In this document: positions 2,600 through 46,178 of the stretch, piece by piece
How positions within the stretch are numbered: position 1 is the first letter of the stretch
Layout of the letters: the number at the start of each line of letters is the position of its first letter
Source: an uncultured Bacilli bacterium
Lineage (GTDB): Bacteria > Bacillota_I > Bacilli_A > RF39 > UBA660
Length of the DNA: 49,929 nucleotides
Assembly (NCBI GenBank): GCA_934141615.1
Contig: CAKPCM010000002.1
Coordinates: 1-49,929 of the forward strand
Reading direction: 5' to 3'
The notes under the pieces: generated by a model
What the model saw: the letters and a program-made list of their open reading frames with translations, nothing else
Database searches by the model: none
What the model was told of the DNA's origin: nothing
Made by a program: the position numbers and the translations under genes

Positions 2600-5500
2600 G
2601 TGGATTGCGTGGCTTATAAAGTAAGAAAAGTAAACGAATACCGTGAAAGAAGAGACTTCTCAAGAGTAAAAAAATCTCTAGAATTAGCAGATTTACTTGA
2701 GGTACAAACTAAGTCTTATGATTGGTTTATTCAAGATGGAATCAAAGAAGTGTTAGAGGAAATAAGCCCAGTAGAAAATTTCTCTGGAACATTATCTTTA
2801 GAATTTGGTGAATATTCTTTTGATGAACCAAGACATACAATTAAAGAATGTAAGGAGAAGAAAACTACATATGCAGCTCCATTAAAGGTTCAAACTCGCT
2901 TGTTTAATAATGAAACAGGAGAAGTAAAAGAACAAGAAATATTCCTAGGTGATATGCCACTTATGACAGAATCAGGATCATTTATATTTAATGGTTCAGA
3001 GCGTGTTATTGTATCACAATTAGTACGTTCTCCAAGTGTTTATTATGGAAGAGAAATAGATAAGAATGGACGTTCTATAATATCTTCACAAATCATACCT
3101 ACAAGAGGTACTTGGTTAGAATATAAACTAAATAGTAAAGATGTTGTTGACGTTAGAATAGACCGTAATAGAAAGGTTGTTGTAACTGCGTTTTTAAGAG
3201 CATTTGGACTATCTAGTGATGATGATATCTTAAAATTATACGGACAAGATGAATATTTGATTAACTCTTTAGGAAAAGATTCTACAAAGAATACTGATGA
3301 AGCATTACTTGAAATCTATGAAAAGTTAAAACCTGGTGAACCAGCAACTTTAGATAGTGCAAAGAACCAGTTAATAACTAGATTCTTTGATAATTTTAGA
3401 TATGATTTAGCTAAGGTTGGACGTTATAAATTTAACAAAAAACTTGATGTTGCAGATCGTCTATTAAATCAAAAATTAGCAGAAGACATAACGGTAGATG
3501 GAAAAGTTGTAATAGAAAAGGGTACTAAGATTACTCACGATGTATTAGAAACTTTAAAACCTATTTTAGCTGATGGATACGGAATGATTGATGCTACAAT
3601 GGATAAAGAACTTGATAACCATACTATGGTTCAAGTAATTAGCATTTATTCTCCAGTAGAACCAGATAAAGTTATAAAAGTAATTGGTAATGACCAATCA
3701 CTTACTGTTAAAACACTTACTATATCAGATATATATGCATCTGTATCATATTATTTGAACCTTTTACAAAACGTAGGTCAAATAGATGAGATAGACCATT
3801 TATCTAACCGTCGTTTAAGACAAGTAGGTGAATTATTACAAAACCAATTTAGAGTTGGTGTTGCTCGTATGGAAAGAGTAATTCGTGAAAGAATGACTAC
3901 TTTAGACGTTGAAACTGCAACTCCAAAGACATTAATAAACATAAGACCAATAACAGCTGTTATTAAGGAATTCTTTGGATCAAGTCCATTATCACAATTT
4001 ATGGACCAAATTAATCCATTATCAGAATTAAATAACAAACGTCGTTTATCAGCGCTTGGACCTGGTGGACTTTCTCGTGATAGAGCTGCTATGGAAGTAC
4101 GTGACGTTAACGTATCTCACTATGGTAGAATCTGTCCAATCGAGTCTCCAGAAGGTGCAAATATAGGTCTTATTACATCTCTTGCAAACTATGCAAAAGT
4201 AAATGAATATGGTTTCATCATGACTCCATATAGAAGAGTAAAAGATGGTAAATTACAAGATCAAATAGATTATTTAACAGCAGACGAAGAAAACGGACAC
4301 ATTATTGCACAAGCTAATGTTGCTATGAAAGATGGAGAAATCATAGAAGAACATTGTCCTGCTCGTCAAGACGGAGAAAATATTCTTGCAAAACCAAGTG
4401 AAATAGATTATATCGATGTTGCTCCACAACAAATTGTATCTGTTACAACAAGTTGTATTCCATTCCTTGATCACGATGATGGTAAACGTGCGTTAATGGG
4501 ATGTAACATGCAGCGTCAAGCATTACCATTATTAAAACCAGAAGCAGCATTAGTTGCAACTGGCGTTGAAGCTCAAGCAGCAAAGGATTCAGGAGTTTGT
4601 GTTTTAGCAAAAGCTGATGGTGTTGTTGAATACGCTGATGGTAAAAAAATCGTTGTTAAAACAGCAAAAGCAAAAGACATATACTTACTTAAAAACTTTG
4701 AGGAATCAAATGCAGGTACTTGCTATCACCAAAGACCAATCGTTAGAATTGGAGATAAGGTAAAACGTGGACAAATAATAGCAGATGGTCCATCAACAGA
4801 TAAAGGTGAAGTTGCATTAGGTAAGAACTTAGTAGTTGCATTCATGACTTATAATGGTTATGACTATGAAGATGCTGTAATATTAAATGAAAAAATGGTA
4901 AAAGAAGACGTATTAACATCTATTTATCTAGAAGATTACGAAATTCAATGTCGTGATACTAAGTTAGGACCTGAGGAAATTACTCGTGATATTCCAAACG
5001 TAAGTGAAGAAGCTCGTAAGAACCTAGATGCTAATGGTATTATTAGAATAGGTACAGAAGTAAAAGAAGGAGATATCTTAGTTGGTAAGGTAACTCCAAA
5101 AGGAATGGTAGAACTTACTTCTGAAGAAAAATTATTACACGCAATCTTTGGTGAAAAGACTCGTGAAGTAAGAGACACATCTCTTAGAGTTCCACATGGT
5201 GGAGCTGGTATAGTTCATGATATAAAGATTTATACTAAGAAGGATTCAGATGAATTACCATCAGGAGTTTCAAAAGAAATCCGTGTATATATAGTTCAAA
5301 AACGTAAGATTCAAGTTGGTGACAAAATGGCTGGTCGTCACGGAAATAAAGGTGTTGTATCACTTGTTGTTCCACAAGAAGATATGCCATACTTACCAGA
5401 TGGTACTCCGGTTGATATCTTACTTAACCCACTTGGTGTTCCTTCTCGTATGAACCCAGGACAAGTTTTGGAAATGCACTTAGGTATGGCTGCTAAGAAA

Positions 5501-6244
5501 TTAGGAGTATATACTGCAACTCCAGTATTTGATGGTGCAACTTGGGAAGATATCCAAGAAATGATGGCAGAAGCTGGAATGGATCCAGATGGAAAGACTG
5601 TTTTATACAATGGTAAAACAGGTGAACCTTTTGATAACCGTGTAGCAGTTGGTGTTATGTACATGATTAAACTTGACCACATGGTTGATGATAAATTACA
5701 CGCACGTGCAACTGGTCCATACTCATTAGTTACACAACAACCTTTAGGTGGTAAAGCTCAATTTGGTGGACAAAGATTTGGTGAAATGGAAGTTTGGGCA
5801 CTTTATGCTTATGGTGCTGCTCACGTACTTCAAGAAATCTTAACAGTTAAGTCAGATGATGTTGTAGGACGTGTTAAAGTATACGAATCAATCGTTAAGG
5901 GTAAACCAATTAACCAAGCAGGTGTTCCAGAAAGTTTCCGTGTTTTAGTTAAAGAATTCCAAGCTTTAGGTTTAAACATTGCAATGATAAATGAAGATGG
6001 TAAAGAAGTAGATGTTAAGACTCTAGAAGAAGAGGAAGACAAAGAAGGAGCTCCTTTATCAATCGAAGAAATAGATAATGTATCAATGGTAAAACCAAAA
6101 GAAACTGTTGATATCGTAAGTAAAGAAGAGGAAGCAGAAGAAAGTGATGAGCTTTCGGAAGAAGAATCTGATGATTACGAAGCTGAATTAGAAGACAATT
6201 TAGATGAATCGGAAGATTTACAAGTGGAAGGGGATGAAGAATAA
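2600..6244 (+). CDS. rpoB: DNA-directed RNA polymerase subunit beta
   Basis: 1214-aa ORF with canonical beta motifs ([40 protein letters not shown]). The GTG at 2609 (MAYKVRKV...) is better spaced from the AGGGG SD than the GTG at 2600. Acidic C-terminal tail. Confidence 0.98.
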
Positions 6245-27117: not shown

Positions 27118-27192
27118 TAAAACAATTGTTATAATATAAAAGATTTTATATCTATGACTTTATAAGAGTCATGGCGAAAGGAGCTATAGAAT

Positions 27193-33304: not shown

Positions 33305-34534
33305 ATGAAAATAGCTAATGTAAAAGCAAGAGAAATACTTGATTCAAGAGGAAATCCTACTGTTGAAGTGGACGTTACTTTAGAAAATGGAATAATGGCA
33401 AGGGCATGCGTTCCATCTGGAGCATCAACCGGTGTGCGTGAAGCTCTTGAAATGCGTGATAATGATACAACAAGATTTAACGGTAAGGGAGTATTAAACG
33501 CCGTTAAAAACGTAAATGAAAAAATAAGACCAGTAGTAGTTGGTATGGATGTTAAAGACCAATATAGCATCGATAATGCCATGTTAGAGTTAGATGGTAC
33601 TAAAACAAAAAGTAATTTAGGTGCTAACGCAATATTAGGCGTTTCTATGGCTTGTTTAAAGGCTGCTGCAAAAGAAAGTGGTATGCCTTTATATAAATAT
33701 GTTGGAGATGGAAAAACACTTCCAATTCCAATGATGAACATATTAAATGGTGGTGCACATGCTGATAACAAGTTAGACTTTCAAGAGTTCATGATAATCC
33801 CACAACGAGATAATATTCATGAGAGAGTAAGAGTTGGTTCAGAAGTATTCCACGCTTTAAAAAGCGTATTAAACGAAAAGAAATTATCGACTGGAGTTGG
33901 TGATGAAGGTGGTTTTGCTCCTGACTTAGATTCAAATACAGAAGGTTTTGAACTTATTATGGAAGCTATTAAAAAAGCTGGGTATACGCCTGGTGTTGAC
34001 GTAAAACTAGCAATAGATGTTGCAGCATCGGAGTTTTATAGTGATGGTAAGTATAATTTAGTAGGAGAAGGAAGAAGTCTTTCTACTGACGAATTAATAG
34101 ATTTCTATAAAGAGTTAGTAAGTAAGTATCCTATTGTTTCGATAGAAGATCCTGTAGATGAAAATGACTGGGAAGGTTTTGCTGAAGTTACTAAAGAATT
34201 AGGAGATAAAGTTCAATTAGTTGGCGATGATCTTTTTGTTACAAATAAAGAATGTTTACAAAAAGGCATCGATATGAAAGCAGGAAATGCAATTCTTTTA
34301 AAGGTAAACCAAATAGGTACTATAACAGAGACTTTAGAAACAATTAAATTAGCTAAAGAAAATGGTTATAAAACAATAATATCTCACAGAAGTGGTGAAA
34401 CAGAAGATACAATAATAGCAGATTTAGCTGTAGGTCTTGATTTAGGTCAAATAAAAACAGGCTCTATGTCTAGAACTGATAGAATATGTAAATATAACCA
34501 GTTAATGAGAATTGAAGAAGAACTAGAAGGCTAG
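33305..34534 (+). CDS. eno: Enolase
   Basis: [42 protein letters not shown]. Confidence 0.97.
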
Positions 34535-34546
34535 TTCTTTTTTTTG
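34520..34546 (+). terminator. Rho-independent terminator after eno
   Basis: GAACTAG/CTAGTTC hairpin (contains the eno stop codon) followed by T9. Confidence 0.75.
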
Positions 34547-34598
34547 TTTACAGGTCGGTTTTGAGTTTACAAGTTCTTTGCACAATATAATAAAAAAC

Positions 34599-34626
34599 TT
34601 GACGGGGGGGGGGTATATGATATTAT
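34599..34626 (+). promoter_or_regulatory. Candidate promoter of the atypical sigma operon, with poly-G in the spacer
   Basis: TTGACG (34599-34604), 16-nt spacer (nine further Gs then TATATGA), TGaTATTAT extended -10 (34618-34626). SD AGGAGG sits 8 nt before the ATG at 34669. Confidence 0.5.
34604..34613 (+). repeat. G10 homopolymer tract
   Basis: Counted directly: GAC GGGGGGGGGG TAT. It stands out in a genome this AT-rich. Confidence 0.95.
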
Positions 34627-34668
34627 AAACATAGAAAATTTTATAAATTTCACATAGGAGGAATTATT

Positions 34669-36864
34669 ATGAATGATACTCAGTTAATTGATATGATAAA
34701 CAAAAATGTAGAAAACGAAAACGGTAAAAAAAGTATTTCTTATGAAAAACTTGATGATGTTTTCTTAACCGATCTATCAGAAGATGATATTAATAAATTA
34801 TATGATATTCTTGAAGAGGAAAATATTGAAATTAAATCTGATAATTTAGATAATGATAATGTTTATTATGATATAGATAAAGATGCTCCTATGTTAGATG
34901 GCGTTAAGAATTATTTAAGGTTAATAGGGCAATATCCGTTGTTAACTGCTGAAGAGGAGGTATATTTAGCAGAGCAAATTAAACTTGGAAGCAAAGAAGC
35001 ACGTGATAAATTAATAAATTCTAACCTTAGATTGGTTGTATCAATAGCAAAAAAATATAATACAACAATCATGACAATGGATGATCGAATTCAAGAAGGT
35101 AATTTAGGACTTGCAAAAGCAGTTGAAAAATTTGATCCAACTAAGGGTTATAAATTTTCTACATATGCGACTTGGTGGATAAGGCAAGCTATAACAAGAT
35201 CGATCGCAGATAAAGAAAAATTAATTAGATTGCCGGTTCACTATACAGAAGAATTAAGAAAGGTTCAAAAGTTTATTAAAGAATACGAACACAAAAACAA
35301 CGTTTATCCTACAAAAAATGAAATAGCAAAAGGATTAGATATGAGTACCAAAAAAGTAGAAGATATATTAAAAAATTCTCTTGAGGTAAGTTCATTAAAT
35401 AAACCCGTTGGTGAAGATGAGGATTCAGCATTAGAGGATTTTATATCAGACGATTCCTTACCAATAGAAGGATTGACAGAAGATAAGTTTCTAGGAAAAG
35501 ATATAGAAAAAATGCTTAAAGATGTAGCTAATTATGGAAACAAAAATGAAAACACAAAAATAGCAAAAGATGAGATAATAGAAAATTTAGAATTAAAAAA
35601 GAAAAGTGAATTAGAGTATCTATTTGGTTATAAGGGCTTAATAACAGATGTTTATGGTTATGGTTTTTCTAAAAAAACAAAAGAAAAATATAATTATATA
35701 AATTTTATACCATCAGAAGAAAATAAGATTATATTTAATAATGAAAAGAAAGAGGCATATGAGTTATATTCATTAAAGAAACTTCTTTCTTTTGAGGGAT
35801 TAGTAACAGATGTTTATGGTTATCACTTATCAGAATCATTTAAAAATCAGTATCCATATGTAAAGTTTTATGATGGAGATATAAAAAAAGTTATGGTAGA
35901 TCATTATAGGAAAAATGAGATTATTCTTGAATCAAGAATAAATAAAACTATGACCTTACAAGAATTAGGAATTATGTTCGGACTTACAAGAGAAAGAATA
36001 AGACAGTTAAATAGTAAAATGATAGATAGATTAAAAAGAAATATATTATATGGTAAGACCTCAATAGAAAAGGGAATTTATGAAAAAGAAAAATTAAGGC
36101 ATGAGGTAATCAAAGCCACTGACGAAATTAAAGATTTTGTAAATTTATATGGTACTGGCTTGACTCTTTACGAAGTAGATTGTGCTTTTGAATTAGATAA
36201 AAGATATGAAACATTAAATAACATAATCAAATCTATATATGGAAAAATTCAGATAATAAAAGATGAATGTATTAAAATTTCAGGTAGTAAAGAAGTTACA
36301 AAAGAAGAATTACTTGCATCATTAGAAAAAATAAAGGAAAATTTAAAATTAGAAAAGAAAAAGCAAGAAGCAATTGTTAAAGAAAAAAAATTAACTGAAA
36401 GACACACTCAAAAATATGAAGAATTAGATGCAAAAGAAAAAGAATGCGTAAAAATGATATCTTCAATTGATAAAAAAATATTAAATATTTTAATTAGTAA
36501 TGCAGAAGCTTTATCTAATGATTCAAATATAAATATTAATAAATTTATTAATAATATTTATATGCCTGTTGGTACTATATTTGAGGGTATTAATTTAAAG
36601 AAAACACCGTATAAAGATATATTATTAAGTCTATCCTCTAGTAATATAGTTCTATTAGAGGAAGTTAGGGCTAAAACAATGTATATGAGTGAAAAGAAAG
36701 ACATTAAATTTTTAGAATCTATCAATGATGAGTCTCAATCTGATATAAAAAAATGTTTTGTTCACAAAGTAGTAGATGAAGTAAAACGAAAGGGATATTC
36801 TATACAAGAATATATTGATTTAAAACAATATATTAATTTGGAAGAAGAAAATAAAATTAAATAA
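34669..36864 (+). CDS. Atypical 731-aa sigma-70 family (RpoD/group 1-2-like) sigma factor with internal insertion and long C-terminal extension
   Basis: Region 1.2 VKNYLRLIGQYPLLTAEEEVYLA. Region 2 NLRLVVSIAKKY...DRIQEGNLGLAKAVEKFDPTKGYKFSTYATWWIRQAITRSIADKEKLIRLPVH. Region 3 present. Region 4.2 TLQELGIMFGLTRERIRQLNSKMIDRLKR at aa ~429-457. About 130 aa are inserted at aa ~285-415 and ~270 aa follow region 4.2. Confidence 0.85.
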   Translation: MNDTQLIDMINKNVENENGKKSISYEKLDDVFLTDLSEDDINKLYDILEEENIEIKSDNLDNDNVYYDIDKDAPMLDGVKNYLRLIGQYPLLTAEEEVYLAEQIKLGSKEARDKLINSNLRLVVSIAKKYNTTIMTMDDRIQEGNLGLAKAVEKFDPTKGYKFSTYATWWIRQAITRSIADKEKLIRLPVHYTEELRKVQKFIKEYEHKNNVYPTKNEIAKGLDMSTKKVEDILKNSLEVSSLNKPVGEDEDSALEDFISDDSLPIEGLTEDKFLGKDIEKMLKDVANYGNKNENTKIAKDEIIENLELKKKSELEYLFGYKGLITDVYGYGFSKKTKEKYNYINFIPSEENKIIFNNEKKEAYELYSLKKLLSFEGLVTDVYGYHLSESFKNQYPYVKFYDGDIKKVMVDHYRKNEIILESRINKTMTLQELGIMFGLTRERIRQLNSKMIDRLKRNILYGKTSIEKGIYEKEKLRHEVIKATDEIKDFVNLYGTGLTLYEVDCAFELDKRYETLNNIIKSIYGKIQIIKDECIKISGSKEVTKEELLASLEKIKENLKLEKKKQEAIVKEKKLTERHTQKYEELDAKEKECVKMISSIDKKILNILISNAEALSNDSNININKFINNIYMPVGTIFEGINLKKTPYKDILLSLSSSNIVLLEEVRAKTMYMSEKKDIKFLESINDESQSDIKKCFVHKVVDEVKRKGYSIQEYIDLKQYINLEEENKIK

Positions 36865-36875
36865 TGGAGGCAAAA

Positions 36876-37904
36876 ATGAAAGAAAATATAAGTGAAATAG
36901 CACAATATGTTTATGATAATCTATCTCACGGCGATTTTTCAATGAATGAATTGAATGAGATTTTAGAAAAGGATAATATTATATTAAATAATAAACAGTT
37001 AGGGAGGTTAATTTCTGAGTTAAGAAAGTATGGGTTAACCCTTGATGATACATTAGAAATTTATGATAAAGATGATCATACTAATAGTCACATTTCTTAT
37101 GATAATGCAGAATATGGTGAAAATTCAAACTATGTACAATCTTTATCAGAAGATGAATTACAATTAAGTGGTGCTGTTAAAAAATCAATTCCAGAAAATT
37201 TTGTTAGTTCGTTGAGTATTAAAGAGGCTATAACTGACAAAAAAATAGATAAATTTATTAAGTTTATGGAAATTCAACCAGTAGAACTTGCTAAAAAGGT
37301 AAAGAAAGAAATTTTGCAAGAAGTAAATGTTAATGCAGATAAAAAAATAGAGTTATCAAAATGTAGCGAATTTATGAAAAAATGTGTGGATAAATATTTT
37401 GCAAAAATTAATGTTAAAAATAATGTTATACCAAGAATTAAGAAAATACTTAAAAGTAGAGGAATAGAAAATAATATAGGAATAGAAGATTATGTGACAA
37501 GAAAGTTTAATGATAATGAATCATTATTGTTATCATTTAATTCTTATGATGATTTTTATAAAAAACAAGTAGAAGAATTATTAATAGAAGGTTATTTAAC
37601 ATATTTAAATTATTTATATTCACTAGCAAATGTAAAAATGCACGATGTTAAAGTAAATGATATGTTAGATAATTTACTTAAAGTTAAAGAATCTGATAAA
37701 GAAGAAATGCAGAAATTTAATAATGAACATCCTATTTTGGATGATATTGAAACTCAAGTGAAAGTTCAAGATGCTAATAATGCTCGTGCACAAGCTTCAA
37801 TTAACGCAGCTATTGAAGAATTAGGACCTAATGCGTCTAGTGAAGAAATAAGAAAAAGAAGTTTGGAAATATTAAATGATACTACACCAAGTAAATCTAA
37901 ATAA
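36876..37904 (+). CDS. Hypothetical soluble protein co-transcribed with the atypical sigma factor
   Basis: The ATG at 36876 lies 5 nt after GGAGG (36866-36870). An alternative ATG at 36864 overlaps the sigma stop (TAATG). No TM segment and no recognised family. Confidence 0.6.
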   Translation: MKENISEIAQYVYDNLSHGDFSMNELNEILEKDNIILNNKQLGRLISELRKYGLTLDDTLEIYDKDDHTNSHISYDNAEYGENSNYVQSLSEDELQLSGAVKKSIPENFVSSLSIKEAITDKKIDKFIKFMEIQPVELAKKVKKEILQEVNVNADKKIELSKCSEFMKKCVDKYFAKINVKNNVIPRIKKILKSRGIENNIGIEDYVTRKFNDNESLLLSFNSYDDFYKKQVEELLIEGYLTYLNYLYSLANVKMHDVKVNDMLDNLLKVKESDKEEMQKFNNEHPILDDIETQVKVQDANNARAQASINAAIEELGPNASSEEIRKRSLEILNDTTPSKSK

Positions 37905-38176: not shown

Positions 38177-38206
38177 AAAAAAGGCTTTATTAATAGCCTT
38201 TTTTTG
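38177..38206 (+). terminator. Rho-independent terminator after secG
   Basis: AAAAAGGCT/AGCCTTTTT hairpin followed by T-run. Confidence 0.75.
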
Positions 38207-43388: not shown

Positions 43389-43752
43389 GGGGCTGTTATT
43401 GGTTTCGACGGTAAGTATGAGGCTATGGTTGCAAGTGGAAGGTACTCCTTACGTACAAACAAAAAATAAATAACAACAATAATAATTATGCTTTCGCAGC
43501 TTGCGCTGCCTAGTCTCTAATAGAGAAAGCGCTTCTTTTAAAGTTTTACTCACGGACTTTTTAAGAGGCTCATTTTAGTGAGTTATATTATCTTGTTTGT
43601 TTAGGATAAGATAAAGAATTTTACTAAACTCGTTATTTGGTGGGTATGTTAGTTACCTTTATCATTTAATTAAATTTAATTACTAACTAAACTTGTAGAC
43701 GTCATAGAGTACTATTTATCGGACACGAGTTCAAATCTCGTCAGCTCCACCA
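43389..43752 (+). ncRNA. ssrA: tmRNA (SsrA)
   Basis: 5' GGGGCUG pairs with 3' CAGCUCC-ACCA and includes the G3.U pair. T-arm CGAG-UUCAAAU-CUCG. Internal tag ORF ...NNNNNYAFAACAA-TAG (43472-43513). Located next to smpB. Confidence 0.9.
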
Positions 43753-45169: not shown

Positions 45170-45311
45170 ATCGAATAATTTCGAGGTAATAATAGAAAAC
45201 GACTTGTCAAAAAGTCGTTAAGGTAATGCTATAAGTAAAATGATGATAATGATTAAAGAAAAGATTAAAAAATATTTTTCACATTCCATCTGTAAATATG
45301 GGGGGTAGTAT

Positions 45312-46178
45312 ATGAATAAGAGGGCAGCAGCGGTAATTTCTTCTATTTTTAATTCATTTTGTGATTTTACTTTAGATATTGCAGTAAATAAATATTCTGT
45401 TTATAAAGTATTATTATATACAAGTATAATTTCATTCATTTTTCAAGTTTTATATGCATTTTATGTTGGTATTTCTATAACAGTTCAAGCAATTCCTATT
45501 GTTTTAATTTATGGTTTGATTATATTATTAGGTTATCTATGTTATGTTAAGGCATTAGAGAATATACCAATAGGTCTTGCCGCTTTACTTGAAAATTTAG
45601 ATTTATTTATAATTTTAATAATTGATATATTATTTGGAAATTTAATTTTAACCCCAAAATTTATATTTTTATTCATATTGTTTATTATTTCTATTTTATG
45701 GTTTAGTCTAGAAACAAATAGAGTTAAAGATGAAATAAAGTTTAAGAAAATAAAATTTATAGGTGTTGTTTTTATATTATTATCTGTTTTATTTTATGGA
45801 ATTGAACCATATATAGTAAAGTATGCTAATATATTAGGTGCTAATGAGGTGGCTATTAACTTTGGTTATAGTGCATTTGCAATTCCATTTTTCTTTTTTA
45901 AAAGTAAAAAATTGGATGCATCAGCAACAGAAAATAATAATAAAAGATTTTTAATTTTAGTAGTTTTGATTGGTTTTTTTGAAGCTATTTATTATATATT
46001 TGGAACTATCGGTTATATTTATGAAACTCCAATTATAGTTAATATTATTCAAGAAATCAGAGTATTTTTATTAGTTATATTATCAGCAGTGTTTAAGACA
46101 GATAAAATGAATTTAAGAAAGGTAATTGCAATATTACTTGGTATGATTTCAATAACAGGAATTTATTTTATTAAATAA
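45312..46178 (+). CDS. DMT-superfamily (EamA-like) 10-TM transporter
   Basis: 288 aa with two 5-TM halves; YVKALENIPIGLAALLENLDLFIILIID resembles the EamA repeat. Confidence 0.6.
   Translation: MNKRAAAVISSIFNSFCDFTLDIAVNKYSVYKVLLYTSIISFIFQVLYAFYVGISITVQAIPIVLIYGLIILLGYLCYVKALENIPIGLAALLENLDLFIILIIDILFGNLILTPKFIFLFILFIISILWFSLETNRVKDEIKFKKIKFIGVVFILLSVLFYGIEPYIVKYANILGANEVAINFGYSAFAIPFFFFKSKKLDASATENNNKRFLILVVLIGFFEAIYYIFGTIGYIYETPIIVNIIQEIRVFLLVILSAVFKTDKMNLRKVIAILLGMISITGIYFIK

Follow-up and report, generated by a model that had tools for sequence, protein, structure and literature searches.

A length-variable poly-G tract in the promoter spacer of a SigA-like sigma factor gene as a probable slippage-driven control element in an uncultured RF39 lineage

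A run of ten guanines separates the −35 and −10 elements of the promoter that precedes a SigA-like sigma factor gene in a bacterium of RF39, an abundant uncultured order of human and animal gut bacteria. Is this run a hypermutable tract whose length, changed by slippage, sets the spacing of the promoter elements, or is it a fixed recognition element, a remnant without effect or a sequencing error? We compared the locus in the window, by which we mean the whole stretch of 49,929 nucleotides analysed, with the corresponding and related loci in other genomes and metagenome assemblies.

The window carries three RNAs recognised by Rfam:
726–860, L10 leader
27152–27183, L31-Firmicutes leader
43389–43752, tmRNA
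Their presence beside rpoB/C, the str operon, tuf, secG, rnr and smpB indicates that the window is core chromosome.

Results

The G tract lies within the spacer of the sigma promoter

The promoter, the genes around it and the predicted signals are as follows:
33305–34534, eno, upstream of the sigma promoter
34514–34545, + strand, intrinsic terminator of eno, a 13-pair stem overlapping the eno stop codon, then T8
34577–34598, + strand, upstream part of the promoter unit, TTTGCACAA followed by the A-rich ATATAATAAAAAAC
34599–34604, + strand, −35 hexamer TTGACG, whose final G also opens the tract
34604–34613, + strand, G10 homopolymer GGGGGGGGGG, the putative hypermutable element within the spacer
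34614–34630, + strand, TATATGATATTATAAAC, the TG-extended −10 element with its conserved flanks (TG at 34618–34619, TATTAT at 34621–34626)
34631–34668, + strand, predicted 5′ leader, with AGGAGG at 34656–34661, 7 nt before the ATG
34669–36864, + strand, gene for a 731-aa SigA-like sigma factor (Pfam regions 1.2, 2, 3 and 4)
36864–37904, + strand, ORF2 (346 aa), whose start overlaps the sigma stop codon by one base; no family hit

The tract is followed by TATATGA and then by TATTAT, giving a spacer of 16 nt. This agrees with the sequence-only reading, which had placed G10 at 34604–34613 between TTGACG and TGaTATTAT. A promoter-spacer homopolymer is defined by a run of at least about 7 nt between −35 and −10, and G10 is such a run. 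In a consensus scan, TTGACG/TATTAT is the best sigma-70-like site of 34300–34900, with 10/12 matches in addition to the TG. TTGAC is invariant in all copies of the promoter unit described below, as well as in the orthologous promoters without the tract. The transcription start is predicted near 34633. An upstream candidate promoter, TTTACA-14-TATAAT (34566–34591), was rejected, its spacer being too short and its sequence not conserved.

Upstream of the −35 hexamer, 34577–34598 occupies the position of an UP element or an activator site, to judge from its placement. TTT(C/G)CACAA followed by about 13 A-rich nucleotides recurs before TTGAC in most unit copies of other genomes. The terminator of eno was found as one site against 0.1 expected and is kept in relatives; as predicted, it isolates the sigma promoter from upstream transcription.

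The G+C content of the window is 30%. Under a first-order Markov model, 0.002 G runs and 0.00009 C runs of at least 10 are expected per window, and G10 is as conspicuous in this AT-rich DNA as had been remarked. The accompanying remark that the window has no comparable G or C run also holds: no other run of at least 7 occurs in the 49.9 kb, and the next is a G6 at 45300. This second-longest G run of the window (45300–45305) sits 6 nt before the ATG of an ORF at 45312–46178 and may be a ribosome-binding site.

Related promoters place the tract in a promoter and the optimum at 17 nt

Related genera keep the gene order eno–sigma–secG–rnr–smpB, and the sigma promoter there has no G run:
Loci L107 and L108, TTGACT, 18 nt, TACTAT, with TG
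Loci L115 to L117, TTGACC, 17 nt, TATCAT, with TG
That these orthologous promoters keep TTGAC and a TG-extended −10 supports the earlier assignment of the tract to the interior of a promoter. In the collected lineage DNA, extended −10 promoters with non-G spacers peak at 17 nt (16 promoters at 17, 7 at 18 and 5 at 16), in line with the earlier claim that 17 nt is the optimal spacer. The set includes clear promoters of ribosomal-protein genes and others preceding ribosome-binding sites. Taken together, the orthologous promoters and the 17-nt peak support both the hexamer assignment and a preference of RNA polymerase for 17 ± 1 nt. On this comparison, an ordinary spacer was replaced by the G tract within the clade to which the species of the window belongs, the tract being the derived state.

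The sigma factor resembles SigA and carries an insertion and a C-terminal extension

The closest solved relative of the sigma factor is Bacillus subtilis SigA (7ckq_F, E 9e-58), to which it aligns over SigA residues 14–287 and 327–358. Region 2.4 and the TRERIRQ helix of region 4.2 are near-identical, indicating that the protein should read ordinary TTGACA/TATAAT promoters. It scores below the cut-offs for RpoD (NF006666, 239 bits versus 572; TIGR02393, 218 versus 354), and region 1.1 was not detected with Pfam or NCBIfam. An insertion of about 160 aa (residues about 265–424, window 35461–35940), which contains an internal duplication, lies between region 3 and region 4.2 and splits region 4. 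The C-terminal extension of 275 aa (residues about 457–731, window 36037–36861) is modelled confidently by AlphaFold (pLDDT 88); a search of the PDB gave no fold match for it (best E-value 0.1).

Because the start of ORF2 overlaps the sigma stop codon by a single base, the two genes are probably co-transcribed. No terminator was found between ORF2 and secG, the first being at 38177–38204, after secG. Rfam detects no RNA family at the sigma locus.

Several other identities and origins were considered. The best short RpoD hit, P0112, was examined as a possible dnaG–rpoD locus of the lineage; its contig belongs to an unrelated clostridial genome and is uninformative. Identity with MzaA, the MZA anti-phage sigma-70, was rejected: the PADLOC/NCBIfam hits cover the generic sigma core only (216 bits versus a cut-off of 800), and the neighbouring ORF has no defence-family match. 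PHROGs and PADLOC return only generic sigma-core hits for the sigma factor and none for ORF2 or for the 318-aa ORF described in the next section. A tblastn search of phage genomes yields similarity in the sigma core only, reaching at most 54% and covering roughly one third of the protein, and a scan of viral contigs did not find the promoter unit. With phage similarity confined to the sigma core and the unit absent from the scanned viral contigs, the idea that either the island or the unit came from phages is unsupported. A scan of genome contigs with the window sigma protein gave no matches, the peptide patterns being allele-specific.

The promoter is retained while its cargo is replaced

The sigma gene lies in a region that is much more variable than its surroundings:
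34644–37898, + strand, hypervariable island of leader, sigma gene and ORF2, with flanks 94–99% conserved
Among four relatives, identity is 94–99% in the flanks and 58–90% in the island. Synonymous divergence is 0.26–0.89 in the sigma gene versus 0.09–0.13 in eno, with dN/dS of 0.16–0.32. This mosaic pattern of identity suggests that alleles of the island are exchanged by recombination.

In two assemblies, L057 (5930–6886, − strand) and L104/UMGS957 (1–427, − strand), an unrelated 318-aa ORF replaces both sigma and ORF2. The flanks are 96–99% identical to those of the window or its relatives, and the poly-G promoter is kept. The boundaries of the replacement correspond to window positions 34643 and 37899, the first some 10 nt past the predicted start site and the second just before secG. 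The 318-aa ORF has no similarity to sigma or ORF2 and no family hit. The replaceability of the island argues that the sigma factor is dispensable, like a group 2 sigma factor; the deep conservation of the eno–sigma–secG gene order across genera argues that it matters. Judged by these properties of the locus, it may not be the housekeeping sigma factor.

Tract length differs between closely related strains

To follow the tract across strains, assemblies of the locus were gathered through the contigs of sigma-protein homologues and through a DNA-pattern scan of metagenome contigs. The tract is present at the same position in all 20 independent assemblies obtained. It comprises G7, G8, G9 or G10, with or without a preceding C, and the resulting spacers are 13–17 nt, mostly 15–16 nt. 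The lengths by sigma allele, the allele being named by its identity to that of the window, are as follows:
Window allele, three assemblies, each with G10
91%-identical allele, G9 (three assemblies) or G8 (one assembly)
84% allele, C+G9, G10 and G9
71% allele, G9 (three assemblies) or G10 (two assemblies)
60% allele, C+G9 or C+G10
Two strains with the other cargo gene, G10 (L057) and G7 (L104)

Of the five sigma-allele groups represented by two or more assemblies, four contain at least two tract lengths, which indicates that the changes are recurrent and independent. Recurrent change of this kind is the signature that would be expected of a hypermutable repeat. Three contig pairs, matching at 99.9–100% of positions over 2.4–8 kb, make the point at closest range. 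Between L013 and L014, which have 2 mismatches in 8078 nt, a difference of a single G in the tract is the only indel. L018 and L067 (no mismatch in 3713 nt) and L011 and L012 (1 mismatch in 2440 nt) likewise differ by one G, with the caveat that some length calls come from low-coverage assemblies (L001, 3×; L018, 2.5×), where homopolymer errors are possible. The A8/T8 runs of these loci served as a control: a change was seen in 1 of 23 comparisons, whereas the G tract had changed in 4 of 9 (Fisher p = 0.015).

Two independent metagenome assemblies from Hadza samples (ERZ4567810 and ERZ28614266; L001 and L002) are 100% identical to the window over the 201 nt of 34500–34700, which take in the intergenic region with its G10. 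The optimal spacer of 17 nt was seen only once at the sigma locus (L110), and no clearly dead state dominates.

The sequence-only reading had proposed a slipped-strand switch and had named, among the outcomes that would speak against it, a length invariant across strains and a run produced by sequencing or assembly. The length ranges from G7 to G10 in the 20 assemblies, and the run recurs in independent assemblies, two of them identical to the window through the G10. The comparative data, in the form of tract-length differences between strains and of the multi-copy family described below, support the proposal.

In a single assembly (L006, 1597–2780), an IS3-family insertion sequence with HTH_Tnp_1 and rve genes lies between the eno terminator and the poly-G promoter.

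The poly-G promoter is a multi-copy unit

Pattern scans reveal that the same arrangement precedes several unrelated genes. The unit consists of TTGAC, 0–4 nt, G6–11 and then YATATGRTATTATAAAC, usually with TTT(C/G)CACAA and an A-rich stretch upstream. The 17-mer that follows the tract in the window (TATATGATATTATAAAC) is identical in dozens of copies. In a scan of one genome per GTDB species, the unit was found in 11 metagenome-assembled or draft genomes, named Clostridium sp. CAG:594, Tenericutes UMGS957, or uncultured Mollicutes, Bacilli, Clostridium or bacterium. CAG-594 belongs to the order RF39, family CAG-433 (PMC8035907), and UMGS957 is 97.5% identical to the window over 7.6 kb. Among the fragments recovered, CASEKZ01 has 14 copies and CANQHF01 has 7.

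In 630 kb of lineage DNA, a sample biased by having been gathered largely through searches for the unit, 81 of the 82 G/C runs of at least 7 fall in promoter units. The runs in units always have G on the sense strand, and 88% of them are G9 or G10. The one G run of at least 7 outside a recognisable unit in the lineage loci is a G8 in L092 (6411–6418, + strand), which is followed by an A-rich stretch.

The genes downstream of the units mostly encode signal-anchored proteins. They include PARCEL/DUF285 repeat surface proteins (Pfam E 6e-84; NCBIfam TIGR02167 E 6e-97) and other families of 200–450-aa proteins whose SipW-type signal is weak and scores under the family cut-off. Most other copies of the unit thus precede a surface determinant, a typical feature of promoter-spacer switches and no strict requirement, whereas the copy in the window precedes a sigma factor. 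As far as these genomes reveal, the poly-G unit is a modular, multi-copy element common to the surface-protein repertoire and a regulator.

Orthologous surface-protein loci also vary between samples, over G8–G11 (spacers of 18–21 nt) and over G6–G9 (spacers of 16–19 nt). Spacers of the copies that mostly precede surface genes span 12–21 nt. Over all unique copies, the spacers form two groups, at 15–17 nt and at 19–20 nt, a distribution that fits some copies being on and others off. From their position and variation, the poly-G units look like a candidate set of phase-variable genes in an uncultured commensal lineage.

The copies in RF39-order genomes lie in loci L075 to L106, for example at 5559–5582 and 6415–6438 in L082 and three times in L097. 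Some tracts are interrupted, as CCCAGTAGGGGG (L022, L040, L055 and L072) or as GGGGGAGGGG or GGGGAGGGG (L030, L042 and L051), and copies in L028, L044, L069 and L073 have no G run. Copies with interrupted or replaced tracts have fixed spacers of 16–17 or 19 nt and may represent the switch locked in the on or the off state.

Contig L005 begins inside the G tract of the sigma locus, and L042, L059 and L070 end 10–20 nt from a unit copy. Such breaks are compatible with length heterogeneity within a sample; they are also expected because the unit is a multi-copy repeat.

Discussion

A model for the tract and its alternatives

We propose that the G10 is a hypermutable spacer homopolymer and that the spacing set by slippage determines the strength of the promoter for the sigma gene and the next ORF, a reading that we regard as probable. 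In this model, slipped-strand mispairing at replication would add or remove single Gs in the tract. Tract length would in turn set the spacer, G8 giving 14 nt, G9 15 nt, G10 16 nt and G11 17 nt, and spacer length would set the strength of the promoter from which the SigA-like sigma gene and the following ORF are predicted to be transcribed. The outcome at this locus would be a heritable, reversible and graded dosage of sigma. The position and conservation of the tract, its variation in length between strains, the multi-copy family and the 17-nt optimum of ordinary promoters are observed; the slippage mechanism, its rate and reversibility, and its effect on transcription we infer from sequence.

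The form of control may differ between loci. At the sigma locus, the extended −10 element and spacers of 13–17 nt (mostly 15–16 nt) make graded control likelier than a strict ON/OFF switch. The surface-gene spacers, judged by their range of 12–21 nt, are wide enough to allow true ON/OFF switching. A TG-extended −10 element can make a promoter tolerate poor spacing of its −35 element, and the effect of length on transcription could therefore be small. Tract length clusters at G9–G10 whatever the spacer context, which could mean that it is constrained for another reason.

This clustering is one of the observations that a fixed element would explain. On that account, the G run is a recognition site for a regulator, or for an unusual sigma factor or RNA polymerase, and the length differences are incidental noise. 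Conservation over many genes and species extends to the entire unit, the upstream TTTCCACAA and the exact 17-mer behind the tract included; the G9–G10 peak stays sharp regardless of extra bases between TTGAC and the tract, and G is always on the sense strand. However, non-G spacers of 17–18 nt serve in the orthologous sigma promoters and in paralogous promoters of surface genes, interrupted or decayed tracts occur in otherwise intact units, and G6 to G11 are found at one orthologous locus. Poly-G contingency tracts of Campylobacter peak near G9–G10 as well, so that a peak at these lengths also fits a contingency tract. It also agrees with the tprL tracts of Treponema pallidum (PMC7864442). We consider a fixed element unlikely.

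Alternatively, the tract may be hypermutable and have no effect, as a hitch-hiking remnant of a duplicated or mobile unit, the extended −10 being sufficient at any observed length. Consistent with this, every copy has the extended −10, spacers at the sigma locus stay within 13–17 nt, and the unit was retained when the cargo gene was swapped. An unselected G10 at 30% G+C should nevertheless decay through point mutations, yet the tract is intact in 20/20 assemblies and is kept across sigma alleles with synonymous divergence up to 0.9. The sole substitution, G to C in L010, L109 and L110, leaves a spacer of 16–17 nt. These observations make a tract without effect improbable. Homopolymer error in sequencing or assembly, as the source of the run or of its length variation, would be in keeping with the low coverage of some assemblies, the start of L005 within the tract and the several contigs that end at units. 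It is very hard to reconcile with a tract found again and again, in dozens of assemblies that came out of different projects and assemblers and include a contig of >100× (L067, G9), with lengths that range over 5 nt at orthologous loci, and with the stability of the A/T runs of the same contigs; we regard it as highly improbable.

Comparison with known systems

By position, polymorphism and recurrence, the tract fits the class of promoter-spacer homopolymer switches, to the extent that sequence features define the class. In Neisseria meningitidis porA, a poly-G tract lies in the spacer, and slippage by one base off 17 nt grades transcription from high to none (PMC7864442). The likeness is close, a G homopolymer within the spacer of a sigma-70-type promoter in both cases. 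The porA tract, however, serves the porin of a Gram-negative pathogen, whereas here the target is a SigA-like sigma factor of a Gram-positive-type gut commensal, the −10 element is extended and the unit is multi-copy.

T. pallidum offers a multigene parallel. Promoter tracts of G7–G11 precede tp0126 and paralogous tpr genes, tp0126 being expressed best at a 17-nt spacer, and the tprL tracts, mostly G9, vary in vivo (PMC7864442). Like the RF39 units, they place a poly-G tract in the promoter of each of several genes. They differ in having been verified by fragment-length analysis, 5′-RACE and reporters, and their targets are outer-membrane proteins only, with no regulator gene among them.

The Vlps of Mycoplasma hyorhinis are a family of surface lipoproteins, each gene having a conserved promoter region. 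Indels in spacer repeats turn transcription ON or OFF in M. hyorhinis vlp, M. arthritidis maa2 and M. mycoides vmm (PMC2268961, citing Citti and Wise 1995). Mycoplasmas are phylogenetic neighbours of RF39, and PARCEL/DUF285 proteins are common to both. In contrast to the units described here, the vlp, maa2 and vmm tracts are poly-A or TA repeats, and their targets are lipoproteins only.

In phasevarions, a repeat tract makes the expression of a methyltransferase stochastic, and one slippage event could change the expression of many genes (PMC7383803, PMC10123105). If sigma dosage matters, the present locus would resemble them in having a repeat tract on a global regulator. It would differ in that their regulator is a methyltransferase with the repeat usually in the coding sequence, whereas here a sigma factor has the repeat at its promoter and the effect on a regulon is hypothetical.

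We found no literature report linking RF39 to phase variation, and a 2025 review of phase variation makes no mention of sigma factors as a target class. What is new here is the host lineage and the target; the class of mechanism is already well known from a few pathogens (Neisseria, Treponema and Mycoplasma).

Implications

If slippage sets sigma dosage, the tract would provide a simple form of genetic bet-hedging on global transcription in a commensal. Tract lengths can be read straight from metagenomes and would then show which surface genes are on. A bolder version, which we regard as rather doubtful, is a 'sigma phasevarion' of an RF39 commensal, in which the tract renders the dosage of a SigA-like sigma factor heritable and stochastic, wired through the hypermutable promoter unit that also serves the variable surface-protein repertoire. 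One slippage event would then reset global transcription and not a single surface antigen, and the sigma factor and its partner ORF would be hypervariable, swappable cargo, perhaps under phage or host conflict.

Other sigma-like genes in the lineage

The other sigma-like genes found in the lineage loci are of the sporulation type, and none is a second SigA: a SigE/K-like gene in L030 (61–642) and a SigF/G-like gene in L084 (2912–3697, − strand). Genes of this type suggest that some of these reduced-genome Bacilli may still sporulate. The SigF/G-like gene of L084 adjoins a ylmC/ymxH-like gene.

A more distant genus carries a homologue of the window sigma factor at another place. In L095 (2036–4456, − strand), an 806-aa SigA-like sigma factor with a long C-terminal extension is encoded directly after dnaK–dnaJ, and its gene is preceded by a G10 unit at 4479–4502 with a spacer of 17 nt.
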